Shown here: one piece after another, positions 1 through 57,767 of the stretch
Numbering within the stretch: the first letter of the stretch is position 1
Layout: the number at the start of each line of letters is the position of its first letter
IMG/VR virus record: IMGVR_UViG_3300013947_000027
Coordinates: 38,033-102,032 of that record
Direction: 5' to 3' (one strand)
Length of the DNA stretch: 64,000 bases
Origin: a virus
Taxonomy: Duplodnaviria > Caudoviricetes
The notes under the pieces: model-generated
Seen by the model: only the letters and a program-made list of their open reading frames with translations
Databases searched by the model: none
Told to the model about the DNA's origin: nothing
Program-made: the position numbers and the translations under genes

Positions 1-465
1 AGTTCGCATAAAGAGAGCCCCCCTCAGGGCTACAATATTATTCTTATTACGAATATCCCTGAACGGATTATCAAAGCTTGCAGCAGTAAGACCATAGACG
101 CTGTTGATAGCTATTTTGAGGGCTTGAGCAAGATCCTTCGCAGTAGACTCATCTTCTAGATATGGAGCAAGTCTACCATTAAGCATCGTACGAGCAGTAT
201 CGTAATCACCATGTTTGATTGCTACACGAGCGTCCAGAATATCAGTGAAATTTTTCGTATAGTCGCCAAAGCAATTCATAGCTCTAATAGAGTTTGGATG
301 AAGTGAGTTTACATCCAACATGGCAACCTTCGTGTAAATACCAGGGAAGGATATAATATAGCCTCCGAATCCCATATCTGTTCCGCGATACATATTATGT
401 GACTTTCCATCTTCACCGAATTGCACAAATTCATATCCTGGGAATGCATTAATTACGTCAGCCAT
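1..465 (-). CDS. Family B DNA polymerase catalytic part (runs off the left end; not in the ORF track)
   Basis: Hand translation from ATG at 465: MADVINAFPGYEF...LDVNSLHP (PolB motif A, DxxSLxP)...KIAINSVYG (motif B, KxxxNSxYG). Frame is open to position 1. Confidence 0.9.
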   Translation of the reverse strand, partial: MADVINAFPGYEFVQFGEDGKSHNMYRGTDMGFGGYIISFPGIYTKVAMLDVNSLHPNSIRAMNCFGDYTKNFTDILDARVAIKHGDYDTARTMLNGRLAPYLEDESTAKDLAQALKIAINSVYGLTAASFDNPFRDIRNKNNIVALRGALFMRT

Positions 466-976
466 TAGCATCACCGCTTTCTACGTATTTGAAATGATAG
501 CCATGATGAGTATGTCTTCTACCGTGCAAGCACTCATGTATATGACCAGGATTTCCATGTATCTTCCTAGCACAGTCACCGATGCCATCAAATACTTCAC
601 CAGTTTCTACTATCATAATCGGCCGCATAGTTTTTTGAATATAATTTGGTGATCTTAGACCCATTTTATAGGCGTGCTCCTGATTTTCACTAGAAGTAAC
701 CCATTCCAAGTTATCAGCTCGATTGTTCAACTTATTACCATCAATATGATTTACGTATCGTTTATTAAATGGATCGGGATTTTCTACAAAAGTTTCTGCG
801 ACTAAGCTATGAACACACTGCGAGACATCTTTTTCGGTGCAACCGATCCGCATATATCCTCTCGCATTCATATATTGATTTAATTCATGCCATTTTCCTC
901 TTTTGCGTCTAAGAATATTTCCTTCATCTGAAATCAAAAAATTATCATGATTTGGATGCTGTTTCCATCTACTCAT
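458..976 (-). CDS. HNH homing endonuclease (NUMOD4-HNH type)
   Basis: VHSLVAETF...VNHIDGNKLNNRADNLEWVT HNH signature. Likely start MSRWK at 976 after an AAGGAGG RBS. Confidence 0.9.
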   Translation of the reverse strand: MSRWKQHPNHDNFLISDEGNILRRKRGKWHELNQYMNARGYMRIGCTEKDVSQCVHSLVAETFVENPDPFNKRYVNHIDGNKLNNRADNLEWVTSSENQEHAYKMGLRSPNYIQKTMRPIMIVETGEVFDGIGDCARKIHGNPGHIHECLHGRRHTHHGYHFKYVESGDANG

Positions 977-995
977 TTTTAGTCCTCCTTTCTTA

Positions 996-3764
996 TTAGT
1001 ATTGTTCACCTGTAGCAAGATCAGTGTAAACAAGCTTTGGTTTGCGTTCTTTACCAAACACAATTTTAGTAGTGAGGTTATTTGTAGTATCGTTGACTGT
1101 GCCTCCAGCTAAATCTGCAAGAATCTGACGAGCAGTAAAGTCGCCCTTGAGATGATTAAAGACTTTTTCCGTGGAAATTACATCCCAGTCACAATAAGCA
1201 GCTACTTCTTCCCATTTTTCTTCAGGAACGGGTTTGTCCCATGGGAGCCCGAGTTCCTTATGTCCAATGTTGAGTTCGATTTCCCATTTTTTAAGAGACA
1301 TTTTCTTAGCAGCGAAATCGTAAATATCAGTGTAAGAAAGATTATATGCTTCACTGAAGAATGCTTTGTTGCGATCGCCTTTCTCCGCATTGATGATACT
1401 TTGAGACAAATTATATAGCTGTCCGTTGTCATAACCAAGTAGACACGCATACAACATATGATTGTCGTATCTTCTGCAATTGTATCCGACTAGCTTAAAC
1501 TTAAGAAGCTCTTCAATATCCTTAGGTTTCGGATTGATCATTCGAACAACAGGCTTCCCTTCGCCAGCGACTTTCCAGTTAACCAAGAATAGATTAGAAA
1601 ATACTTCGCAGTCGAAGAAGACCAACTCATCCTTCTCAGCATCAACTGCCGCCGAAGGTTCTTCTGACTTGAACTTCATCTTATTAGCAAGCTTAATGCA
1701 GTAATCCGCCTGATTTGTGCTTCCAGCAGCAAAGGCAAAGATCTCATTCTTAAGATCGCTGACATCATAGCCAATACCGCTGCTATACGCATCATCAAGT
1801 AGTTTCGCAATATAATCTACACTGGGCTTTGTTGCAGCATGATACTCTTTGTTAAGATTTCTCTTAATCATTGTGCGCAACATTTTTTCATTTTTAATAC
1901 CATCCCAATTAATCAAACTCTTATCATCTCCTTTCAACGGCAATCCAGAGCTGATCGTCGCAATAGGAAGATTGTTACACTTGGTCAACATTCTTCTAAG
2001 CGAGCTCTTGCCGGTGAATACTTTGATCTCAATGTCATCATCATAAATGCGACTTAACTTAGTAGGATCTCCACTATAAATATAATGGAGATGAATGCCT
2101 GCTCCACTCTTGCTCAATTCCGCATATGTAGGAGGCCACTTCTCAGCCGCTTCGAGATTCTTCTGAAAAGATTTATTGCCAGTTTCATCCCGAATATCAA
2201 AGTCAATGACAATATGATTCTCAGGGACCTTAACATAATGCAGTTTCGAAGTGTCCAGTTTAGCAAGAGTAGACTTTACGTCATCCCATTTCCGAGATGG
2301 AGTTTCCTTGGAAGAAGCTTTCTGAGCAAGACAATCAGCGCATTCCTTGTCAAATACGGAAGGCTGAACTTCCATTTTGAGCCACTCAGGAATAGGCTTC
2401 TCGTCCGTAGCCTCTTTAGTCTCTCCTTCGGATTCCGCAAATTCTTCCGATTTACTCTCACCAGTCTCAAACTTCTCAGTTCTGAAACCACTGTAATAGC
2501 TACGAGCACGCTCACCACTATCGCTAGTAAACCGTTCGTTGAACTCTCGGAAATAGTTCATCAACTCAGATCTGAAGTGCATCTTCGAGAGCGAATAAGG
2601 AACCTTCGCCTCGTCAACGTAGGTCTTATACATCTCCCAAGCAGCCTTCAGTGTCGTTCCGTCATCTCTCTTGAAAATATGATACGAATCTATCATGAAG
2701 TTATAGAAATCGTTGGATGCGCTCATCATCGATGTAGGAATATATTCATCGTACCGGCCGGGATCAGACAAATATACTTCCTTACAATGCCAAGCAATCG
2801 GACCCAACTCAAACTGAACATGCTTCATGAGCTTGTTATACTCTCGAATAGGAATCTTATTACCAGACGGAGTAACATCAATCAGTCGTCTCAAAATACC
2901 AGACTTACCATCTGTAATCTTGACAGGCTTATTCGTACCCATAAACAAGAAACAAACGAAACGATTCTCATACTGAGATTTATGCTTTTCGTTCACGCTC
3001 ATCCATTCGTGAGAAACCACACTGTTAAGACGAGTATTATCCTCAATCTTAGACAGATCGCCATCATGCTGAATAGCAACCAGTGGGTTCTTTTTAAATG
3101 GTTCAAGCGCAAATTGAGCACTGGCGGAACCAAGAGCCTTAGCATCGAATACTGCATGGTAACCGTCAAACAGATCCTGAATAATATTCAGAATTGTCGA
3201 CTTACCTGTACCAGGGCCACCATAGAGAACCAAGAACTTCTGCAGAGTCTTGGAATCTCCAGTAACAATGGCGCCGATAGCCCATTCGATCTTATGCCGC
3301 TCTTCTTCGGTGTAAAGTGTAGAGATAATTTTCTCATAAGCAGGACAATCGCCAGGCTCAAGAGGGTAGCTAAGCCTCTTGCTGGAATAATCCTTCTTAT
3401 TCGTGCCGTCATTAGCAAACAGGAGCTTCTCGTCCAACATATGATAAGAATCTCGAAGCTGCTTCTGACAATACTTATGCCAGCCATCAATCACTCCGGT
3501 TTCGGCATCTCGCATATAGCAAATCCGTACACTTCCGTCGATTTCGCCCTTATGCTCATCGGCGTACTTAGTAAGCTCACGGTCTACCAGCTGCACAACG
3601 TCCTGCTCGTCCGTAGACCACAAGCCTCGATCTTCGACCCACACAGCATAGAAGTCTCCGCCTCTGATCATGAGATCATCCACATGCTTAATTAAGAATT
3701 TGGGATAAATTTCTGTATACCCAGGCTTTTTAATGCGAGTCGATACTGTGAAAAAATCGAGCAT
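996..3764 (-). CDS. SF3 helicase / PrimPol primase / 3'-5' exonuclease fusion
   Basis: Walker A GGPGTGKST; PrimPol motifs VIDFD and SKSGAGIHLHY; exonuclease motifs FDCE, GYNCRRYD, YCDWD. Confidence 0.85.
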   Translation of the reverse strand: MLDFFTVSTRIKKPGYTEIYPKFLIKHVDDLMIRGGDFYAVWVEDRGLWSTDEQDVVQLVDRELTKYADEHKGEIDGSVRICYMRDAETGVIDGWHKYCQKQLRDSYHMLDEKLLFANDGTNKKDYSSKRLSYPLEPGDCPAYEKIISTLYTEEERHKIEWAIGAIVTGDSKTLQKFLVLYGGPGTGKSTILNIIQDLFDGYHAVFDAKALGSASAQFALEPFKKNPLVAIQHDGDLSKIEDNTRLNSVVSHEWMSVNEKHKSQYENRFVCFLFMGTNKPVKITDGKSGILRRLIDVTPSGNKIPIREYNKLMKHVQFELGPIAWHCKEVYLSDPGRYDEYIPTSMMSASNDFYNFMIDSYHIFKRDDGTTLKAAWEMYKTYVDEAKVPYSLSKMHFRSELMNYFREFNERFTSDSGERARSYYSGFRTEKFETGESKSEEFAESEGETKEATDEKPIPEWLKMEVQPSVFDKECADCLAQKASSKETPSRKWDDVKSTLAKLDTSKLHYVKVPENHIVIDFDIRDETGNKSFQKNLEAAEKWPPTYAELSKSGAGIHLHYIYSGDPTKLSRIYDDDIEIKVFTGKSSLRRMLTKCNNLPIATISSGLPLKGDDKSLINWDGIKNEKMLRTMIKRNLNKEYHAATKPSVDYIAKLLDDAYSSGIGYDVSDLKNEIFAFAAGSTNQADYCIKLANKMKFKSEEPSAAVDAEKDELVFFDCEVFSNLFLVNWKVAGEGKPVVRMINPKPKDIEELLKFKLVGYNCRRYDNHMLYACLLGYDNGQLYNLSQSIINAEKGDRNKAFFSEAYNLSYTDIYDFAAKKMSLKKWEIELNIGHKELGLPWDKPVPEEKWEEVAAYCDWDVISTEKVFNHLKGDFTARQILADLAGGTVNDTTNNLTTKIVFGKERKPKLVYTDLATGEQY

Positions 3765-8983: not shown

Positions 8984-9796
8984 CTAGTATTCGAGGTAGC
9001 CTATGACTGGTTCCATTGGAAAATGAATAATCGTGCATTCTAATCCTTGACTTTCTTCAGATTCCTCGTCAATGACTATCTCCTCGTAGTCAAATTCGAT
9101 CCATGGATGCCAGTACATTTCCTCGATCTGACCGCAAGCCCATCCTACATTTTCATACTCTGGCTTCTGCTCCAAACCAAGAAGTTCGTAATATTCGTTG
9201 AGACAAACAGCGCCATTAACGTACATAGCTCTATTAGCCTCATACTGAGCCCACATGACAGTCTCTTTGGTTGATTCGAAGTATCTTCCTGAATAGAAAT
9301 CGTAGAATAGTTCTTTGTTATTGTCAGATAAATCTACGTCACCCGCATACTTGTCTTTAGCGATCTCGCCACGAATGTTCTTGCCAGCTTCTTCTCCATA
9401 CAATTCGTCCGTTTTCTTCTTATACTCCTTATAAGAATTGTCAAGTAACGCATACGCACTCATAAGAGACGCCTGCTGACGTTTACTAATAACGTTAGAT
9501 CCGAATATGCACACAATTGTAGCAGCTCCAGTAATTATAGATGGGATGTAAACTGGGCCGGCTATTTTGATTTTTTCCCATTTGGTTAATTCTTCTCCTT
9601 TCTTCTCTTTTGCATCTTCAAGTAACGATAATGCTTTCGGTGTTTCTTTGGCTACCATAACTGCTGTAGTTACTACTCCAGTTGCACCTATACAAGTTAA
9701 TATTGTAGATGCGTTACGTTTAATGAATTGTTGTAAATCCATTTCTTTCCACTCCTCGGGTTTAGGGTATGTGTCAAAAATAAAAGAGAGAATCAA
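8984..9796 (-). CDS. DUF6353-like protein, paralogue 3 (true start probably MDLQQF, a little downstream)
   Basis: RNASTILTCIGATG...VCLNEYY...VGW. Confidence 0.75.
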   Translation of the reverse strand: MILSFIFDTYPKPEEWKEMDLQQFIKRNASTILTCIGATGVVTTAVMVAKETPKALSLLEDAKEKKGEELTKWEKIKIAGPVYIPSIITGAATIVCIFGSNVISKRQQASLMSAYALLDNSYKEYKKKTDELYGEEAGKNIRGEIAKDKYAGDVDLSDNNKELFYDFYSGRYFESTKETVMWAQYEANRAMYVNGAVCLNEYYELLGLEQKPEYENVGWACGQIEEMYWHPWIEFDYEEIVIDEESEESQGLECTIIHFPMEPVIGYLEY

Positions 9797-9974
9797 TCAT
9801 TCCACTCGAAGGACGCCGATATTTCCCTCAGGCTCATGGTCAATCTTTCGATTGAGCTCATCTTTTCAGATCTAGCCTCGTTCATAATCTTTCGATTATT
9901 ATCTCCTTCCCGATGCGGTACCAATGATTGTTGGCCCTCCAACTTCACTGCCCTTTCGAGTGTTATATTCTCTC
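9782..9974 (-). ncRNA. Putative structured ncRNA A (cassette 3)
   Basis: 5'/3' closing helices GAGAGAAT/ATTCTCTC and CACTCGAA/TTCGAGTG, three GAAA-tetraloop hairpins and a 3' U-tract. Confidence 0.7.
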
Positions 9975-10000
9975 ATATTAGGGCCTGTAAATTTCGCGAA
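9973..10000 (-). promoter_or_regulatory. 28-bp motif, copy 3
   Basis: TTCGCGAAATTTACAGGCCCTAATATGA. Confidence 0.8.
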
Positions 10001-11037: not shown

Positions 11038-11065
11038 CCATAATAGGGCCTGTGAATCTCGCGAA
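11038..11065 (-). promoter_or_regulatory. 28-bp motif, copy 6
   Basis: TTCGCGAGATTCACAGGCCCTATTATGG. Confidence 0.8.
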
Positions 11066-11075
11066 ATGCAAAATT

Positions 11076-11218
11076 AAAAGAAAGAGAGGCGGCTCACCTG
11101 TTAACCATTAAGTCACTCCGTACCTCGATAGCCGTCAGCTAAACCTTCAAGGGTGACACCTTATTTCAACGTCGCCGTTTGCACATTTATAACGGTTGTT
11201 TCCGTAACGTCTCTTTCT
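11076..11218 (-). ncRNA. Putative structured ncRNA B (cassette 7)
   Basis: Closing helix AGAAAGAGA/TCTCTTTCT plus U-tract; inner stems CCGTT/AACGG, GTCAC/GTGAC and TAGC/GCTA; no RBS-led ORF. Confidence 0.6.
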
Positions 11219-13390: not shown

Positions 13391-13408
13391 AAATGTCACC
13401 CTCTAAAG

Positions 13409-13776
13409 TTGCATTCAACGCAATGGCTAAAATAAGAAAATCTCAAGTGCTTCTTCATCTGTAAGTTCAAGTACGTCTTTCATCTGAATCGCTTCTCCGA
13501 TTGTTATCTTTAGTGGAGCTCGGAGCTTACGATATAACGTTGGACCAGTCATCCCAATAATTTCAGCTAACTGCTCCACATTCATTTCTCGTTCAACGAT
13601 TTTTGCTTTAAGTTTGTTCATGTTCATTTATGTCACCTCTTTCCGTTGCGTTCCGTGCAACACATACAAGATAGCATCGTTTTACTTTTTATGTCAATAT
13701 TTTTTTGCGTAAAATGCAACGTGTTTTATTCTCAGTTTTAAATAATTTGCATACTTGCAATTCTTAGTGTTATACT
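13409..13776. promoter_or_regulatory. Genetic switch: TTGC-N7-GCAA operators and divergent sigma-A promoters
   Basis: Operators at 13409-13423, 13646-13660, 13705-13719 and an N6 variant at 13747-13760. Leftward TTGACA (13697-13692) and TGnTATCTT; rightward TGnTATACT (13768-13776). Confidence 0.7.
13427..13627 (-). CDS. Cro-like XRE HTH regulator
   Basis: MNVEQLAEIIGMTGPTLYRKL; divergent from the repressor. Confidence 0.85.
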   Translation of the reverse strand: MNMNKLKAKIVEREMNVEQLAEIIGMTGPTLYRKLRAPLKITIGEAIQMKDVLELTDEEALEIFLF

Positions 13777-13795
13777 ATCAACTGAAAGAAAGGAA

Positions 13796-14362
13796 GTGCA
13801 TGATATGAACATAGGAAATCGAATAAAAGAAAGAAGAAAAGAACTAAATATGTCAGTTGAGGAATTAGCTAAAAGACTGAATAAAAATCGAACAACCGTT
13901 TATCGCTATGAGAAAGGAGATATAGAAAACCTTCCAATCGACATTCTTGATCCACTAGCAAAAGCATTAGAGACAACTCCGGCGTACTTAATGGGTTGGG
14001 ATAATAAGCCAAATAAAGACACTGCTACAATTGGCGAGTTGCTTAAGATGATGAGAACTAATCGAAACATGACTATCGAGGAATATTCACGAGAGATAGG
14101 TATATCTGCTGAGGATTTACGTATGTATGAATCCGGAGAAAAATACATACCTCTTTCTGTAATCCACACAATTGCGGAATACTATCGTCTTTCACTGGAG
14201 AGTGTCAGAGTAGGTAACCCTGAGGTTAATAAAGAAGGAAATATTCGCCTCGAACGCTTTAAGACTTGGGCTGAAAATTTTGGTGACCTGGAACTTACTG
14301 ATGAGGAGCATGACAAGATTGTTGAGTACACGAAATTCCTAATCTACATAAGAGAAAAATAA
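13796..14362 (+). CDS. CI-like repressor with two tandem XRE HTH domains
   Basis: IKERRKELNMSVEELAKRL...YRYEKG and LKMMRTNRNMTIEEYSREIG...MYESG. Confidence 0.85.
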   Translation: MHDMNIGNRIKERRKELNMSVEELAKRLNKNRTTVYRYEKGDIENLPIDILDPLAKALETTPAYLMGWDNKPNKDTATIGELLKMMRTNRNMTIEEYSREIGISAEDLRMYESGEKYIPLSVIHTIAEYYRLSLESVRVGNPEVNKEGNIRLERFKTWAENFGDLELTDEEHDKIVEYTKFLIYIREK

Positions 14363-14489
14363 AAGAGAATGTGTAGTCTTGTACAGTTCATTTCCTGTCC
14401 GAGAGTCGCTCGGTCTTATTTCTTATATGACGGCATCTCAGCCGACGGGACTTTCACCCGTAACTCATTACTGCTACTTCATTTTCTCC
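14361..14489 (-). ncRNA. Putative structured ncRNA C (cassette 11)
   Basis: Closing GAGAA..ATG/CATTCTC and GTAG/CTAC; hairpins ACGGG-TGAAAGT-CCCGT, CGGC-TGAGAT-GCCG, CCGAG/CTCGG and ACAG/CTGT; U-tract. Confidence 0.7.
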
Positions 14490-14515
14490 ATAATAGAAGC
14501 TGTTATTTACGCGAA
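14488..14515 (-). promoter_or_regulatory. 28-bp motif, copy 11
   Basis: TTCGCGTAAATAACAGCTTCTATTATGG. Confidence 0.8.
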
Positions 14516-14578
14516 GGGAGGTGATGCCTATGTAATCACAGCGCCGCAACGAGAGTAAACTAACAGGAGGAATAGAAA

Positions 14579-16159
14579 GTGACAATATTCGAAAAGAACG
14601 GGATAATCGATAACTCTATGCCTACCCGCATGGATAAATATGTGATTTATTTGCGCAAATCTCGTGCAGATGTAGAAGCCGAGAAACTAGGCGAAGGAGA
14701 AACCTTAGCTCGGCATAAAAAGATACTTACAGAGCTTGCTGCAAGAAAAGGCTTGTATATCGAGAAAATATACGAAGAAATTGTCTCTGGGGAAACCATC
14801 GAGGCTAGACCTGAGATCCAGAAGATGATCAAAGAATGCTATGAGGGCAAATATAAAGGAATAATTATTGTCGAGGTAACTCGTCTGTCTCGTGGTAACC
14901 AGGGTGATGCTCAGACTATTCTAGATTGCTTGAAATATTCGAATCGTAATAATGGGGTGTTAGTAATCACACCGACTAAAACATACGACGTTGCTCACTC
15001 TCAAGAAGATGAAGAATACATGGAGTTTGAATTGTTTATGTCTCGTAGAGAATATAAGATGATTCAGAAGCGTATGGATCGTGGTCGTAAGCAAGCAGTT
15101 GTAGAAGGAAATTTTATGGGAAGCTACAGACCATATGGATATGATATTGTCAAAACTAAAACAAGCAGAACACTTATACCCAATGAAAATGAAGCACCGA
15201 TTGTTAAACAAATGTTTGACTGGTCTGCTAATGAAAATTTGACACCATATAAGATTGCTCAGCGATTAGAGAATATGGGTATTCCTACTTATTATGGAGA
15301 TGGCGAATGGTCGAAAGATACTGTTAAAACTATTTTGACGAATCCTACGTATATGGGGAAAGTTAAGTGGAACGATCGTATGCAAATCAAAACTATGGTT
15401 GACGGAGAGCTTGTAACATCAAGACCTCGATCGAATCATACTGATCACTACATGGAATATGATGGTAAACATAAGAAGTATGCACTAATAGACGAAGAGA
15501 CTTTTAATAAAGTAAGATCTCGATTCGGAGTTGATAGAACAAAGTCAGGGCTTAAGTTAACAAATATATTGGCTGGAATATTCAGGTGCAAAAACTGTGG
15601 ACGTGCAATGGGCTATCAATCATATAAACAACGTAAAACGCCAACTGCTCCAAGATACTTACATGCCGAGTCTCAAAAATGTAAAGTGAAATCAGTTGTA
15701 GCCGATGATGTTTATAAAGCTCTGATTCATGCTCTTAAAATGTATATAGAAGACTTCGAGGTTAAACTTGACAATCTTCCAGAGACAAATGAAAATGAAA
15801 TAGATAAGCAGATAGAGATATTGAATCGAGAGACAGCTAAAATAAAAAGGAAGCTATCTAAACTCTTTGATTCCTGGGAGGATGAGGCTATTACAGACAA
15901 CGAATTTGTCGAACGTAAAGCAGTGCATAATAATCGTATTGAGAAAATTAAGCAACAGATTGAAGATTTGGAATACTCAATTCCAGAAAAAGAAGAATAT
16001 CAAGAAAAGATCATTCTTCTATCTGAAGCTCTTAAAGCTATCAGAGACGACTCATTGGATGCTGATATCAAGAACGAGTATCTTAAGAGAATCATTGATA
16101 CAATAGAGTTTAGTAGAGAAAATAACTCGGAATTTATACTTGATATAACCCTACACTAA
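14579..16159 (+). CDS. int: Large serine integrase
   Basis: YLRKS catalytic Ser motif, VSG, RLSR, PYGY, recombinase domain, CKNCG zinc ribbon and coiled coil. Confidence 0.95.
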   Translation: MTIFEKNGIIDNSMPTRMDKYVIYLRKSRADVEAEKLGEGETLARHKKILTELAARKGLYIEKIYEEIVSGETIEARPEIQKMIKECYEGKYKGIIIVEVTRLSRGNQGDAQTILDCLKYSNRNNGVLVITPTKTYDVAHSQEDEEYMEFELFMSRREYKMIQKRMDRGRKQAVVEGNFMGSYRPYGYDIVKTKTSRTLIPNENEAPIVKQMFDWSANENLTPYKIAQRLENMGIPTYYGDGEWSKDTVKTILTNPTYMGKVKWNDRMQIKTMVDGELVTSRPRSNHTDHYMEYDGKHKKYALIDEETFNKVRSRFGVDRTKSGLKLTNILAGIFRCKNCGRAMGYQSYKQRKTPTAPRYLHAESQKCKVKSVVADDVYKALIHALKMYIEDFEVKLDNLPETNENEIDKQIEILNRETAKIKRKLSKLFDSWEDEAITDNEFVERKAVHNNRIEKIKQQIEDLEYSIPEKEEYQEKIILLSEALKAIRDDSLDADIKNEYLKRIIDTIEFSRENNSEFILDITLH

Positions 16160-16184
16160 AATTGTGTGGGATAATTTTTGCCTG

Positions 16185-16236
16185 TGATGTTCATCATGAG
16201 TGTGTTACTTTTATAGCGCACCCTTGATGCACATCA
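16185..16236. other. Putative attP site
   Basis: 52-bp imperfect inverted repeat (18/23 arm match) centred on TT at 16210-16211, 25 bp after the integrase stop. Confidence 0.7.
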
Positions 16237-36100: not shown

Positions 36101-39100
36101 TGCCATCTGCAAACGCACTAATTCCGGTACCGAACTGCAGGAGACTCTGATTGCCAGCAAAGAAATCTATAACCCCTCCAACACGGTTAAGGTTACTCTG
36201 AAGTTCAGATAGAACACCAGAAGCCTTAACTAGATTCGCGAGGGTATCCGGATTTATAGTTCCACAGCTAGACAGAGTTACCATACCAGTGGCAAACGCT
36301 TCAACACCGTTGCCGAATGTTTCGAGGCTGTTCGAGCCTGCGAAGAAATCAACAACGCCACCGATACGCTCCAAAGAACCCTGCAACTCCGAAAGTTTAT
36401 TCGAAGCTACCACAAGAGTGTCTATAGTGATGGGGTCTACCGAGCTACATTCGCCAAGTGCCTTCATGCCATCAGCAAACGGCACAACACTTGCACCAAA
36501 TGCGCCAAGGTCGTCTCTACCAGTGAACCACTTGATAACGCCGCCAATAGGCTCAATCACACCCTGCAATTCTGCTAACTTTTCAGTAGCAAGAATAACA
36601 GTGCCGAGTGCTGCGGAATCCAAAGTGATACCATCGAGAGTAGTGAGCGCAGTCTTCATAGACTCGATAAATTCGGCTACGTTTTCGCCAAATGTGCCAA
36701 GATCATCTCTACCCTTGAACCAAGAGATAACGCCTCCGATAGGCTCGAGAGAGCTCTGAAGTTCAGCAAGCGCAGTTGCGGCTGTGATAATACATTCAAA
36801 CGCGCCTAGGTCAAGAGTGACATCCTTGAGCGTAGAGAAAGCCATCTTCATAGACTCAATAAACTGAGCTACATTTTCACCAAATGTTGCGAGATCATCT
36901 CTACCCTTGAACCAAGAGATAACGCCTCCAATAGGCTCCAGAGAGCTCTGAAGTTCAGCAAGTGCTTTCGCGGCAATAATAACCGAGTCAAAAGCTTCCT
37001 TGTCAATAGTAACTCCATCAAGAACCTTGAATGCCATCTTCATGGATCTGATGAACGGAACGATACTGTTGCCGAACGACTCAAGGTCTGTTCTACCAGC
37101 AAACCACGAAATAACACCGCCAATAGGTTGCAGAGACTCCTGGAGATCAGCCAGACTCTTAGCCGCTTTTATGATGACTTTAAACGACTTTTCGTCAATG
37201 CTGACATCGGAAGAAACCTTACCGATTTGTTTCATGGCTCTAAAGAATGCCACAGCATCAGTTTCAAACTTCTCCATAGATGTCTGCCCAGAGAACAGAG
37301 AAGTAAAGAGATCTGCAATGGACGTGCCGATAGCAGAACCAGCTAACTGTAGAAGAACACTAATCAGATCTTCAACTCCATCAAAGGATCCGCGCTTAAT
37401 ACCAGATGCGTTTGAGCTAGCAACGGAGAGAGCCGCCATAAATACAGCGATGTCCTCTCCCATTTTGACCAAACCATTGCCAATTCCAGTTGAAATACCA
37501 TTGACAAAGTTTCCGATCATCTTTCCGATACTGCTGCCGATCTTTTCAAGAACTGGCAAGCCTTTATCAAGGAATTTCTCAAGACTCGGGAACTTAGTCA
37601 TCAGAGCACCAACTGCAGTTGCAAAGCCACCCATTATACCCATAAGAGCAGCAAGCCCAGTCATAGCTGTGACACCAATTAGAGCCATCGGACCAACCAG
37701 AGCAATCTTGGTCAGAAGCTCAGTCATTGTGGTCATAAGACCAAGCAGCAGATTAATATTGGTTTCAGCATTCTCGATACCATTCATACGCTTAATAATT
37801 GCAATGAATGTGAGCATCGGAATAGCCATCGCAGTTAGAGCGGCAACACCTAAAATGGCAGGCAAAATTAGCGCGCCGACTAATGTAAGCGGTAACAACA
37901 GAAGTGTAAGTACACTCATGAGAACGACCAGAGCTTTAACATTACCCATGGCATTCTCTACGCCATTCATGGTCTTCAGAACTTTGATGAACACCCACAT
38001 CGGAGCAGCCATAGCAGTAAGCGCAACAACGCCCTTTACTGCGTCCCACACATCAACCTTCATGAGGTCAAGTAGCTTAACAAGTCCTGCCATCGCCGTC
38101 ATTAAGATAATAAGTGCGGCGACATTCTTAATCGAAACCTTAAGGTTTTTCATCGAATACAGAACACCAACAAAAGCAAGCAGAGGAATCACCATCGTAG
38201 CAAGCGAAACGGCTCCCTTAAAAGCTTTCTTAACATCAGCATTCATAGAGCTGAGAACTTTAAGCACGCCAGCCATCGCCAACATGAGAGTCGCCAGAGA
38301 AGCCACAGTCGCAATTGTTGTCTTAGGATTCAGCAAGCCGAGCAAATACATAACGCCAGTAAGAGCAACAATAACTCCAATCATCATGATGATAGGGCCA
38401 ACAGGAACCTTGGTCAGGCCCTTTAGGCTACGCATCATAATTGCAAACATGCCCATCAATACAGCCATTGCACCAACAGCTTTGGCGAGATCCTTATCAT
38501 CAATAAAAGAGAGTGCTGCAACAGAAGCAGCCATAGCAACAATGGAAAAGGTCATCCATTTCATTGCATCTTTAGCATTCTTTGCACCCTTCAGGGAATG
38601 AGCCATGAGCGCCATCATAGCGCTAAGCATACCAACTGCGGTAATTCCCTTTGCCAAACTCCTTATATCAACGAAACTCAGCAAGACACAAACACCGGCC
38701 AAGACTGCAATACCCATAGACATAGCAGTGATTGTCTTAGATACTTCAGCCATTTTCTGCTTATTACTAATCTTAAGAATCTGGACAAGAGATGCAACAA
38801 ATATTAAGAAACCCGCCATAAATGTGCCGCCCTTAATCATGTCGCTGACAGAAAGCAAACCACAGAGTTTACATACTCCAACAAGCATAAGCATTGCGAA
38901 CGAAATACTCGTGATCATCAAACTGATCTTGGCCATTTTCTGTTCACTACTTATCTTTGTGACTTTGACTAATGCAGCTACGAAGATAACAAAGCCGGCA
39001 GCAAAGTTTGCGCCTTTGAACATATCTTCCGCGGTGAGCAAACCAGCAAGTTTGCAAACACCAACCATGAGTGTCATTGCAAATGCCAGTTTAATCATCA

Positions 39101-54485: not shown

Positions 54486-54561
54486 TGGAGCCGTTGACAG
54501 GAATCGAACCTGCAACCTGCTGATTACAAATCAGCTGCTCTGCCTATTGAGCTACAACGGC
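54486..54561 (-). tRNA. tRNA-Thr(TGT)
   Basis: GCCGTTG/CAACGGC acceptor stem, GCTGA-TTTGTAA-TCAGC anticodon arm, GGTTCGATTCC T-arm, encoded CCA; 76 nt. Confidence 0.97.
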
Positions 54562-55460: not shown

Positions 55461-57767
55461 TTATTCCAATTTAGCTGAAGCTACAATATGGAGCGCACTC
55501 GTAGGAACAACGTTAGACTCTGATATTTCTACAGCACCAGCTGGCATTATCATAAATCGGACAGCATCAGCATCGGAATAGCCCGTCTGTTTGCTTATAT
55601 CAATTACCCACTCTTTAGAAGTGTTATCTGTTGATAGCGCAAGATTATTCGTATAGTTAACGCTTGTTATTGTATTGTTTTTAAGGAATGCGATCTTATG
55701 GAATACTGGTTCGCTTATGGTATACGCACCACCATAGCCTGACATATGCGCACCATTTACCTTGAGGTAACGGTACTTGGACATATCAATAGAAACCGGC
55801 GCACAGATGTATGACCCAAGTCCATCTATAATACTGGTTCCGCTGTATTTCTTATTGAGAGATACATTTTGATTACTATACAGCTCGACATCAGGTACTT
55901 CTAACGTTCCTGTCTGCGGCATTTCCGCATCATAAGTCACATATGCATTAGCGCCCTCCGCCACGGGGATTGTAAACCTGATGTATTTATATGTTGCGGG
56001 GAAATCGCTGTTGAAGGTAACTTTGTACACGTTGCTCGACTCCTGCTCCCATGTGCATTGCGCAAAATGCGAAGACGCTGAAGTAGTGAGAATATAGCTG
56101 GCCGTAGACATCACCTTTTCGGAGTTATAAAACACAACTGCTGTACCGCCAACTCCAGCATCGGCTGGTGCAGTGAGTGGCCTAATTCTAACAACAGACC
56201 CCGCCTTGCAAGGAATGAACCCAGTGACACACGAGCTGGTATTATCTTTCTCTACGCCAGTCGACGTGGGCAATCTCTTACCATTCGTATACCCGACTGC
56301 TGCCTGCGAAGCACCTCCAACCTTGAAACTATCAGTCAGAATATTCGGCGCAACACCACCGCTTTCGACGGTGCTAATCGTAATAACAAGATCACCAGTG
56401 ACTCGCGGAATAGCGATTTTACCTCCAGAATAATAATTTGACACGTCTATTCCTCCCATTGTGATTGATACGGTTGTCCCGTCGAGTTCGTACCCAGCAT
56501 CAGCGGTAATATTTGCACCATAGGACTGACCGTCAATCACTCGGAGCAGTGTGTTGTCGGTAAAACAGTTGCTCAAATTGAGGGTTACCTTTCGGTACAA
56601 TTCAGTCTCATCGCCTTGCCACACCTCGGCAGTGATGTCAACCCCGTTCATCTTTACGCTCACGGAACTGATTGTCTTTCCATTTTCGGCAGAAATCACA
56701 GCCTCATATGGCTGGTACTGTGTCACTTCAGTCGCAGCGTTGTCGGTAGTTACCCCTGCGAGCGTGTTAGTCACGGCAAAGGTCGATATGCTCGGCGTCA
56801 CCGTCTCCGGTGTTCCATCGATCATCGCCTTGCGGTACGCATTGATCTCCGCAGCCGTAAACCCGAGTTCAGCAACAAATGTAACGCACTTATCACGGAA
56901 AGTGCTGCCAGACTTAGTGTTGATCGCTGAGATTAAACCTTTCCATTCGCTTTCATTTCGCCTACGGGCATTCGCATCGGTATCCGAGCCGCTGTAAAAA
57001 GTCGTCAACTCATAATCTTTGTCAATGTCGGACTGACTCATACCAAGTAATCCCTCAAGTACACAAGCCAACGTACCAGTCCGATCTGCACCAGCAGCGC
57101 AGTGGAAATACACCGGTTCGCCATGTGTAACTGCATCGAACACACACTGTAAATTGATACGCCATGCCTCTGTATTTGTCAGAGAATACCAATTGTATGC
57201 ATCAGCCTTGACAAAGTAAACGTCATCTCCAAGCGGAGATTTTGTCCATGTTGCCTCTGCAGAACCGCGTAGATTAAGGTCATATTTAATGCCGAGTTCC
57301 TTCACGAGCACGTTATAATCTGCGCTAGACGGTTCACCGCCTCTAAAAAGCAACCCGTATTTTACAGTACCGCCATCACAAGCCCAGCCGCCAAGGTCTC
57401 GCACATTCCAGGTGTTCGTCTGAATATAGCGCAAGAAATCCAATGGTTTTAATGTGCCGGCAATCCCGGTTTCTGCAAAGGGTGTCGCTACCCCAGGAAC
57501 CTGATTGTAGTAAGTCTTCCCGCCTAAGGTTTTTCCGATAGGTCGGTAGTTACTAACTACTGCCGTAGCAGGGGCATAATTGGCGATCTGCGACGTACTA
57601 TAATCACTCGGATCATAGGTTACAGCAGCAAGATAATTTCTAACCGCTTCAGGGCATTGATGCCACTCTACATTTTCAACGCCACTCCCAGAATCTACAT
57701 CCACCTGCACAACTTTGCCGTTAGCTACCAGCGGTTTATCGCCAATGTATACTGTTTTTGTTGCCAT
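55461..57767 (-). CDS. Protein-tyrosine-phosphatase-fold protein with Ig-like/beta-rich C-terminal domains
   Basis: NVRDLGG, LNLR, HCAAGADRTG (CX5R loop), DYELT. Confidence 0.85.
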   Translation of the reverse strand: MATKTVYIGDKPLVANGKVVQVDVDSGSGVENVEWHQCPEAVRNYLAAVTYDPSDYSTSQIANYAPATAVVSNYRPIGKTLGGKTYYNQVPGVATPFAETGIAGTLKPLDFLRYIQTNTWNVRDLGGWACDGGTVKYGLLFRGGEPSSADYNVLVKELGIKYDLNLRGSAEATWTKSPLGDDVYFVKADAYNWYSLTNTEAWRINLQCVFDAVTHGEPVYFHCAAGADRTGTLACVLEGLLGMSQSDIDKDYELTTFYSGSDTDANARRRNESEWKGLISAINTKSGSTFRDKCVTFVAELGFTAAEINAYRKAMIDGTPETVTPSISTFAVTNTLAGVTTDNAATEVTQYQPYEAVISAENGKTISSVSVKMNGVDITAEVWQGDETELYRKVTLNLSNCFTDNTLLRVIDGQSYGANITADAGYELDGTTVSITMGGIDVSNYYSGGKIAIPRVTGDLVITISTVESGGVAPNILTDSFKVGGASQAAVGYTNGKRLPTSTGVEKDNTSSCVTGFIPCKAGSVVRIRPLTAPADAGVGGTAVVFYNSEKVMSTASYILTTSASSHFAQCTWEQESSNVYKVTFNSDFPATYKYIRFTIPVAEGANAYVTYDAEMPQTGTLEVPDVELYSNQNVSLNKKYSGTSIIDGLGSYICAPVSIDMSKYRYLKVNGAHMSGYGGAYTISEPVFHKIAFLKNNTITSVNYTNNLALSTDNTSKEWVIDISKQTGYSDADAVRFMIMPAGAVEISESNVVPTSALHIVASAKLE

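Follow-up and report, generated by a model that had tools for sequence, protein, structure and literature searches.

A predicted structured RNA in apparently movable promoter-RNA cassettes of human-gut phages

Introduction

What is encoded between the repressor and integrase genes of a Caudoviricetes phage, and does it act on the genes beside it? In the window, the 64,000-nt stretch of DNA analyzed here (IMGVR_UViG_3300013947_000027, record positions 38,033–102,032), a repressor-like gene (13796–14362, plus strand) is followed by a large serine recombinase gene, the integrase (14579–16159, plus strand). The repressor-like protein has two XRE-type HTH domains (two Pfam HTH_3 stretches, E=9e-23) and a PHROG match to a transcriptional regulator or repressor, and its gene resembles at the DNA level the CI-like repressor of Clostridium phage phi3626. 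The integrase matches Pfam Resolvase, Recombinase, and Zn_ribbon_recom and a PHROG integrase family (E=7e-92). An initial annotation, made from the letters of the window, placed a structured minus-strand RNA between the two genes and proposed that its promoter, firing against both, could bias lysis versus lysogeny. To our knowledge, few phage small RNAs have firm structural support, and hardly any come from uncultivated human-gut phages.

The upstream region of this putative RNA carries a repeated promoter motif, and the genome encodes a YonO-like polymerase. YonO was shown by experiment to be a phage RNA polymerase; it transcribes one late operon, its mapped start in SPbeta is located ahead of a non-coding RNA that had not been annotated, and the 2017 paper left the SPbeta YonO promoter sequence undetermined (PMC5467207).

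Sequences and Searches

Coordinates are those of the window unless "genome" is stated. The first homology search returned 20 homologs at 77–87% identity, and the final family set holds 83 copies, 52 of them distinct, from phage contigs, human-gut metagenome contigs, and one MAG. Hairpin P3 was the search seed of the first homolog set, and its invariance in that set is due to the seed. The joiner J2/3 was part of a later search pattern, so its conservation is partly a product of how members were found. Fifty-five distinct genomic contexts were counted, 54 standard and one permuted (L068). The integrase comparison covered 22 phages with the same integrase type, the window included.

The window RNA was matched by the covariance model at 14361–14485 (146.3 bits, E=1.9e-33). 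No second copy was found in the 102-kb genome, and copy number is one per genome. The RNA was also absent from another 51 loci surrounding related repressors and integrases. Among bacterial genomes, an exact-pattern search of about 185,000 species representatives identified one MAG, and the covariance model detected no copy in another 150 genomes from the order to which this MAG belongs. Among cultured phages, blastn gave no match in 50,697 GenBank phage records. Rfam 15 (4,227 families) gave no match over the window RNA at E up to 10; the only overlapping hit, a group II fragment at 14 bits, is noise. Rfam was likewise silent for seven sources at the gathering score and, with E up to 5, for another seven members. 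Literature searches covering YonO promoters and phage RNA motifs turned up no account of this RNA.

No RNA run was listed as covering 13400–16200. A wastewater run labeled RNA-Seq cDNA, probably DNA, covers only 14249–14524, in two 151-nt contigs at depth 4. The contigs look like the two mates from a single amplified fragment, and the promoter itself lies within them; they are uninformative on transcript, strand, and ends.

Results

The cassette spans 14361–14515 on the minus strand, convergent with the repressor gene and with its promoter divergent from the integrase gene. It begins with promoter motif copy 11 (14485–14515), which consists of TTCGCG (14515–14510), 14 nt, TATTAT (14495–14490), and the purine-rich GGAGA (14489–14485). 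The structured RNA body that follows is about 125–130 nt long (14361–14489), with a predicted 5′ end at about 14489–14485 and a predicted 3′ end within the U-tract. The 5′ strand of helix P1 (14474–14489; a purine-rich leader, P1a, plus GUAG, P1b) pairs with 14364–14376. This 3′ strand and the U-tract after it, UUUUAUUUUUCUC, were read from the sequence and together occupy 14352–14376. Helix P2 (AUGA/UCAU, 14465–14468 with 14427–14430) closes a domain (14427–14468) that is capped by two abutting hairpins with T-loop-like loops, P2a (14445–14461, loop UGAAAGU) and P2b (14431–14444, loop UGAGAU). The purine-rich joiner J2/3, AUAAGAAAUAAGA (14414–14426), has only 7 sequence variants among the 52 distinct members. 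It leads to hairpin P3 (14399–14413, CCGAG-CGACU-CUCGG) and hairpin P4 (14383–14398) with the conserved loop GAAAUGAA. The overall fold is a four-way junction of seven helices. The U-tract (14364–14352) covers the repressor stop codon TAA (14360–14362, plus strand), the only part of the repressor ORF that is overlapped. The helices, the two T-loop-like hairpins, the two further hairpins, and the U-tract listed in the initial annotation were all recovered in place.

The proposed fold is borne out by covariation. Across the 52 distinct homologs, 98.4% of cells are paired, compensatory (both-side) changes occur in 20 of 32 pairs, and covariation is strong in all seven helices. None of 500 shuffles matched these values, and sliding the structure by 1–3 columns lowers pairing to 35–51%. 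Both-side changes affect 8 of the 10 pairs of P1, and 3 of the 4 pairs of P4 covary. In P2, P2a, and P2b pairing is complete (100%), and the covarying pairs number 2, 3, and 2, respectively. Compensatory changes in P3 appear among members found from a different seed, such as CCCGG/CCGGG in L125. Covariation support appears to be on par with that of curated riboswitch or ribozyme families, and 14361–14489 is predicted to be a folded RNA of about 125 nt whose family has no earlier description.

The RNA was assigned to the minus strand because G.U pairs number 50 in the minus reading versus 9 in the plus reading. The outer pair of P4 is G.U in 30 distinct members and would read A.C on the plus strand. 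The orientation of promoter and U-tract agrees with this assignment. The conserved structure is thus that of a minus-strand RNA, as the initial annotation had it, and not of a coding or plus-strand element. Single-sequence folding of the minus strand was not significant (MFE z-score −0.57). A natural circular permutation is seen in member L068, which keeps the helices and joiners of the family (MFE z-score −3.3) and retains the P4 loop nucleotides as an internal loop; its promoter motif is degenerate and it has no clear U-tract. An exact search for the L068 junction returned L068 only. The permutation suggests that selection keeps the three-dimensional fold.

Several other identities were rejected. 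A small protein gene does not fit: the P2b loop has an indel of 1 nt and the P4 loop one of 3 nt, no frame is consistent, three-base periodicity and third-position enrichment are lacking, and the overlapping ORFs range from 40 to 170 aa. An attP or other DNA-level site was set aside on the strand-specific G.U pattern. A CRISPR-repeat mimic (RNA anti-CRISPR) was considered on the loose likeness of P3 plus GGAAAUGAAC to a repeat hairpin and handle. It was set aside on the covariation of P4 as a helix and on the size of the RNA, most of which would be superfluous.

The sequences agree with the T-loop reading of the initial annotation. All 52 distinct members have U-G-(A/C)-G-A (UGVGA) in the P2b loop, and in the P2a loop covariation links positions 1 and 5 (U/A in 33, A/U in 8, G/G in 8). 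The P2a loop of L096 is UUCGAGU, a canonical tRNA T-loop sequence. At the sequence level these loops would qualify as T-loop motifs, defined as a UGNRA pentanucleotide with a 1–5 pair. In known double T-loop modules, T-loops in bulges or loops of one helix bind head to tail (PMC3664808). Modules of this kind that dock the tRNA elbow (T-box Stem I apex, L1 stalk, and RNase P; PMC3664808) likewise have two UGNRA-type pentanucleotides close by, and the P2b loop fits their AGVGA-like pattern at positions 2–5, whereas each T-loop-like loop here closes a hairpin of its own, the two hairpins being joined at a three-way junction. Rfam gave no match between this RNA and T-box, RNase P, or rRNA. P2a resembles a tRNA T-arm in its 5-bp stem closed by G-C, its 7-nt loop, and its 1–5 pair, but the RNA lacks the cloverleaf order, an acceptor end with CCA, and an anticodon arm of a tRNA. 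A tRNA or tRNA-like RNA was rejected: ARAGORN finds only tRNA-Thr at 54486–54561, the Rfam tRNA model is silent, and the likeness is confined to P2a.

The promoter motif is 28–31 nt long (TTCGCG, 14 nt, TATTAT, and a purine-rich start). Twelve co-oriented copies lie in the window; the genome has 24 minus-strand copies and no plus-strand copy. Each is followed after 15–45 nt by an RBS and start codon, or lies ahead of an ORF-less insert, and the copies are confined to the replication and accessory region, with none in the tail operon. Copy 11 has 4 mismatches to the consensus and belongs to the promoter family. The motif precedes the RNA in the same orientation in 54 of 54 standard contexts. 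The gene of a 1,003-aa polymerase, at genome positions 306–3341, has a full-length match to PHROG 4291 (1,079 bits), a DFDGD motif, and a C-terminal Sigma70_r4 HTH. From this co-occurrence we infer that the YonO-like polymerase reads the motif, which would then be a candidate promoter for YonO-type single-chain RNA polymerases. The arrangement resembles the SPbeta YonO unit (PMC5467207) in its setting in Firmicutes phages, its single-chain two-barrel YonO-type RNA polymerase, and its downstream ORF-less RNAs. It differs from that unit in having 24 motif copies in the replication and accessory region versus one late operon.

At the other end, P1 (10 pairs, A/U-rich) is followed by UUUUAUUUUU. 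It was not called by the terminator scan, and it would not be a canonical intrinsic terminator because it encloses about 95 nt. Standard copies all end in the closing helix and U-tract, and the U-rich tract follows the RNA in every standard context although the DNA beyond differs. With no promoter between, an RBS and ORF lie within 20–35 nt past the U-tract in 16 of the 55 contexts, which suggests that termination is incomplete and that the RNA can also be a 5′ leader. A new promoter motif directly follows the RNA in about 24 contexts, and a convergent gene comes next in 5. Genes downstream of the RNA are unrelated among contexts and encode HTH proteins, small membrane proteins, and proteins without assigned function. 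One of them is presumably a candidate thymidylate-synthase-like protein, as read from its N-terminus.

The RNA is usually found far from lysogeny genes. About 5 of the 55 contexts adjoin a repressor, and about 50 lie elsewhere, in cassette arrays. Its flanks and neighboring genes vary between contexts, no gene cluster is common to all RNA loci as an obligate neighbor, and in most contexts every flanking gene is on the strand of the RNA. The closest relative (integrase 95% and repressor 90% identical) lacks exactly 14363–14516, a 154-nt block bounded by an imperfect AAGRGAR repeat. Its repressor-integrase spacing is only 63 nt, so the two genes are probably co-transcribed there. Among the 22 integrase relatives, the RNA occupies the repressor-integrase slot in two (the window and L011), and the slot holds small membrane ORFs or a different ORF-less insert in others. 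The antisense promoter motif is found in more of these phages than the RNA, in 7 of 22, at 86–95 nt ahead of the integrase start. Phages whose repressors beside the RNA share only 37% identity carry RNAs that are about 85% identical, and the RNA abuts the stop codon of both of these repressor families. Taken from these comparisons, the RNA appears to be carried by many human-gut phages as a movable promoter-RNA cassette. It would be an example of promoter-RNA-terminator cassettes that move between phage genomes, including into the repressor-integrase spacer.

Discussion

On balance we lean toward reading 14361–14515 (minus strand) as a self-contained gene cassette, with promoter, RNA, and closing helix plus U-tract, whose product is probably a trans-acting RNA. 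The first three steps of its proposed action are drawn from anatomy and comparison. The YonO-like polymerase, whose C-terminal HTH resembles sigma-70 region 4, would read the motif and start at GGAGA after TATTAT. The purine-rich 5′ end and pyrimidine-rich 3′ end would then form P1 directly ahead of the U-tract, which would sequester both ends and at least partly stop the transcript at the repressor stop codon. The four-way junction would form with one arm made of the two T-loop-like hairpins and with conserved, purine-rich joiners. The fourth step is a guess: the RNA may bind a host or phage macromolecule in trans as a decoy, sponge, or cofactor. In searches of the phage genome for pairing targets, J2/3 and the loops of P4 and P3 had no complement outside the RNA gene itself other than weak hits with 2 mismatches. 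The RNA would thus be an accessory function swapped among phages as a module, and the repressor-integrase spacer one of many cassette slots.

A role in the lysis-lysogeny decision, raised as a possibility in the initial annotation, is not upheld as the main function: the closest relative lacks the cassette, the cargo of the slot varies, and repressor-adjacent contexts are few. The cis-antisense version of this idea, in which the RNA or its read-through pairs with the repressor-integrase mRNA or collides with its transcription and tips the phage to lysis or uncouples the integrase, is rather unlikely. The promoter does face the repressor, with a motif copy at a similar distance from the integrase start in seven of the 22 phages, the window included, and the U-tract overlaps the stop codon in the window and abuts it in two repressor families. 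If the genes are co-transcribed here as they probably are in the closest relative, the RNA would be fully complementary to the mRNA spacer. Leaky termination is implied by the 16 contexts with a promoterless ORF next. Against this stand the contexts away from repressor or integrase, the unrelated cargo in the same slot, and a covarying four-way junction, kept through permutation, that far exceeds the needs of antisense pairing. Lambda OOP RNA overlaps the coding end of its target and acts by pairing. The present RNA would similarly be short, terminated, located beside a lysogeny regulator, and transcribed toward the 3′ end of that regulator; unlike OOP, it would end at the stop codon, and it combines an elaborate covarying fold with a usual position far from repressors. 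A conserved position opposite a target with overlap, the mark of an OOP-like RNA, was not seen (overlap of one stop codon, about 5 of 55 contexts, 2 of 22 relatives). Transcriptional interference or antisense pairing at the repressor and integrase is possible as a local side effect, because the antisense promoter is commoner in the slot than the RNA. Such effects could include pairing with repressor-integrase read-through mRNA and collision with repressor transcription, and leaky termination might yield antisense repressor RNA running into cro-side genes.

The remaining readings concern the fold itself. A cis-acting 5′ leader, a riboswitch-like attenuator or stabilizer in which the fold senses a ligand or factor and sets stop versus read-on, is improbable. 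P1 lies directly before the U-tract, and a stabilized fold would complete a terminator-like helix ahead of the promoterless ORFs of 16 contexts; aptamers also commonly have T-loop-like loops and purine-rich junctions. Yet the downstream genes are mutually unrelated and do not form the consistent regulated class of a riboswitch, many contexts continue with a new promoter or a convergent gene, and permuted L068 shifts the RNA ends off P1. Hammerhead and twister ribozymes are marked by natural circular permutation, settings like phage accessory arrays have yielded several ribozyme classes, and the compact junction with conserved unpaired nucleotides would suit a self-cleaving ribozyme or processing signal that cuts cassette transcripts into defined pieces. 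This reading is decidedly improbable, as no Rfam 15 ribozyme family (hammerhead, twister, twister-sister, pistol, hatchet, or hairpin) matched at E up to 5–10, the hammerhead core is missing (P2b loop CUGAGAU versus CUGANGA), and only one permuted example was found. It is barely credible that the block is a plus-strand terminator or attenuator of the repressor-integrase mRNA, or a functionless scar of cassette recombination. The plus strand alone folds somewhat better (MFE z-score −1.88), the P3 complement followed by UCUUAUUUCU was called as a weak terminator-like site (14399–14413), and the block is an indel between repeats. On the plus strand, however, the 50 G.U cells become A.C mismatches, including the one pair in 30 distinct members, and flanking genes mostly share the strand of the RNA; in a scar, 98% pairing through 20 covarying pairs would not persist.

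A more far-reaching reading is a long shot: the RNA may represent a new class, either a decoy or sponge that docks a host RNA or protein (such as the tRNA elbow, or a tRNA- or RNA-sensing defense factor) through its two T-loop hairpins and purine-rich junction, or a new self-cleaving ribozyme. Under both versions this RNA would be one of a library of RNA accessory cassettes, transcribed by the YonO-like polymerases of these gut phages and exchanged by recombination at shared promoter and terminator ends. The predicted structure offers a new RNA fold for Rfam. It shares a covarying conserved fold and phage association with the orphan structured RNA motifs known as Rfam candidates from phage and gut metagenomes, and it is unlike them in that a dedicated promoter has been identified for it and one member is naturally permuted.

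In the right 64 kb of this 102-kb IMG/VR virus record, the minus strand carries nearly all large ORFs; the exception is a small lysogeny island on the plus strand. The island encodes a repressor-like protein that has two HTH domains of the XRE type (window 13796–14362, +), a large serine recombinase (integrase; 14579–16159, +), and two small ORFs (+). A Cro-like HTH gene with a sigma-A-like promoter (13627–13427, −) is divergent from the repressor. The repressor–integrase spacer is 216 nt and is mostly taken up by a minus-strand RNA cassette (14361–14515), in which a phage promoter-motif copy (copy 11, 14515–14485) directly precedes a structured RNA (14361–14489). The structural elements described in the initial annotation are all present, namely nested closing helices (P1a, P1b), an AUGA/UCAU helix (P2), hairpin loops UGAAAGU and UGAGAU (P2a, P2b), two more hairpins (P3, P4), and a U-tract spanning the repressor stop codon. 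On the plus strand (14514–14535), a strong RBS, AAGGGAGGTGAT, lies 8 nt before an ATG-TAA start-stop pair (14530–14535), and the GTG start of the integrase follows about 45 nt downstream of the pair. L002, the closest relative, has this pair too, and L011 and L012 lack it. It may be a minimal upstream ORF controlling integrase translation.

Folded as a single sequence, the minus strand is no better than shuffles (z = −0.57; plus strand, z = −1.88), so the case for the RNA rests on comparison with relatives. Viral contigs were first scanned for the P3 hairpin; a blastn filter then gave 20 distinct homologues at 77–87% identity. A second scan, using the pattern of the purine-rich P2–P3 joiner, added members with a different P3, and a metagenome scan added 60 more loci, their contigs often named human gut metagenome and many 30–140 kb long. 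A covariance model from 22 sequences matched 83 places, 52 of them distinct. There is one copy of the RNA per genome. A search of bacterial genomes found none beyond one MAG. No Rfam 15 family matched the window copy or the other members tested, ARAGORN made no tRNA call at the RNA, and blastn against 50,697 GenBank phage records gave no match. None of the RNA runs searched covers this stretch, and the one run that includes part of it was uninformative.

Among the 52 distinct sequences, standard pairs fill 98.4% of 1628 cells (86.4% in shuffles), 20 of 32 pairs have changes on both sides, and 197 cells are double changes (53 in shuffles). No observed pairing or double-change value was reached in any of 500 shuffles. 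This alignment was model-fitted; an earlier MAFFT alignment agrees, both partners having changed in 13 of 31 pairs. When the 3′ partners are shifted by 1–3 columns, pairing falls to 35–51%. Compensatory changes occur in all seven helices (P1a, P1b, P2, P2a, P2b, P3, and P4), those in P3 appearing once differently seeded members are counted (CCCGG/CCGGG in L125). Conservation on the plus strand only, the alternative named in the initial annotation, was not what was found. The minus-strand reading holds 50 G·U cells, in nine pairs, versus nine A·C cells, and these figures swap on the plus strand; one P4 pair is G·U in 30 distinct members. The motif upstream and a U-rich tract downstream share the orientation of the RNA in 54 of 54 standard contexts. 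A coding reading was rejected on a 1-nt indel in the P2b loop, a 3-nt indel in the P4 loop, no third-position excess of substitutions, and overlapping ORFs ranging from 40 to 170 aa.

One related locus, L068, carries a natural circular permutation. Its RNA ends open within the P4 loop and form a new terminal helix of 10 bp there, and P1b is capped (CUACG-UUU-CGUAG). Helices P2, P2a, P2b, and P3 are kept, as are the joiners and the nucleotides of the P4 loop. The MFE fold gives the permuted arrangement (−48 kcal/mol, z = −3.3). In L068 the motif is degenerate and a clear U-tract is missing, and this copy was the sole example in a search for further permuted copies. The permutation argues that selection acts on the junction fold, not on the position of the RNA ends. 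The stretch L068:845–925 (+), which lies downstream of this permuted copy by about 40 nt, includes the T-arm-like GAGTTCGACTCCAC, with no ARAGORN tRNA call.

All members share a P2b loop of the form U-G-(A/C)-G-A-(U)-U. P2a is a 5-bp stem with a 7-nt loop in which positions 1 and 5 covary (U/A 33, A/U 8, G/G 8), the strongest covariation outside the helices. One member, L096, has UUCGAGU in this loop, which is the canonical T-loop sequence of tRNA. The earlier T-loop reading is thus compatible with both loops at the sequence level. The double T-loop modules known to dock the tRNA elbow have a different architecture (PMC3664808).

The 31-nt repeat has 12 copies in the window, in a single orientation. 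Across the whole genome, the promoter motif (≤8 mismatches) has 24 copies on the minus strand and none on the plus strand. It reads TTCGCG, 14 nt, TATTAT, and a purine-rich stretch on the minus strand, and its 14-nt spacing differs from that of sigma-A promoters. Copies lie 15–45 nt upstream of the RBS and start of small minus-strand genes, or ahead of an ORF-less stretch. Those at 10000 and 11244 precede 100–190 nt without an RBS-led ORF (window 9781–9974 and 11065–11214, −), which may be further RNA cassettes. The phage polymerase is a 1003-aa protein of the YonO-like two-barrel type (genome 306–3341, −; locus L123:309–3317). Its match to PHROG 4291 is full-length (1079 bits), and it contains DFDGD and has a fused C-terminal Sigma70_r4-type HTH. 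Many actinobacteriophage proteins are related to it, as is the putative RNA polymerase of Faecalibacterium phage FP_oengus; relatives occur in phages of Faecalibacterium, Gordonia, Arthrobacter, Streptomyces, and Lactococcus. SPbeta YonO, the founding member, was shown by experiment to be a phage RNA polymerase; its mapped start is upstream of an unannotated non-coding RNA, and that paper left the promoter undetermined (PMC5467207). From their co-occurrence, we infer that the 1003-aa polymerase reads the TTCGCG-TATTAT motif, and its HTH could read the TTCGCG part. The polymerase would transcribe the RNA, with a predicted 3′ end at P1 and the U-tract.

An influence on lysis versus lysogeny had been suggested, and the RNA is mostly not part of the lysogeny module. 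In L002, the closest relative (integrase 95%, repressor 90% identical), precisely 14363–14516 is missing, a block flanked by an imperfect AAGRGAR repeat, and the integrase leader directly follows the repressor stop. One of 21 other loci with this integrase type, L011, has the RNA. About 50 of 55 contexts place it within arrays of co-directional cassettes, followed at once by the next promoter motif (about 24), directly by an RBS and ORF (16), or by other sequence. Genes downstream are mutually unrelated between contexts, and a search across loci for a universal neighbor gene found none. In L011, L099, and L121 the RNA adjoins a repressor of a second family, which shares 37% identity with the first, and in L121 it also adjoins an integrase that is 32% identical; the RNA is still about 85% identical between these phages.

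In 7 of 22 relatives, window included, a motif copy precedes the integrase by 86–95 nt. Small membrane-like ORFs are the cargo between this motif and the repressor stop in L007 and L030. At L012:2830–2915 and in L021, L028, and L029, the repressor–integrase slot is filled by a different insert, about 95 nt long and ORF-less. It has the same promoter motif before it and the same 3′ end, ACACAUUCUCUUU, as the RNA, which suggests that cargo is exchanged between fixed promoter and terminator ends.

The RNA has a conserved minus-strand fold and behaves as a module. In the simplest reading, it is a self-contained gene moving between related gut phages as a promoter–RNA–terminator module, probably by recombination at the shared promoter and U-rich ends. 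Its context independence and conserved unpaired nucleotides lead to the guess that it may work in trans, on a partner from the host or the phage. Local antisense effects on repressor and integrase are plausible and cannot explain conservation of the fold. If a single mRNA covers both repressor and integrase, its spacer is complementary to the RNA. Termination after the RNA is probably incomplete, since some downstream ORFs depend on read-through, so transcription from copy 11 may continue antisense across the repressor to the cro side.

Several related phages have odd ARAGORN-predicted tRNA-like genes with 2-nt ('aa') or 4-nt ('gtgt', 'atac') anticodons, on the same strand and 30–450 nt from the RNA (L056:6732–6804, L073:7758–7831, L108:6152–6224, L061:721–794, L152:3731–3804, L167:518–611, and L177:1669–1743). 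The same arrays contain ordinary tRNA-Met, tRNA-Gln, and tRNA-Leu genes. Another recurrent stretch, GCGTGGCTAACGGGGAACCACCCATTGGAATCCCGTGGGAAACATTTC, about 50 nt long, adjoins the cassette in several contigs, just downstream of the RNA in L140 and L144 and just upstream of its promoter at L122:2560–2600, and may be another small RNA or terminator module. Upstream of the tail genes, a minus-strand gene (window 55461–57767) encodes a 768-aa protein with a tyrosine phosphatase domain (Pfam Y_phosphatase3, E = 8e-25).
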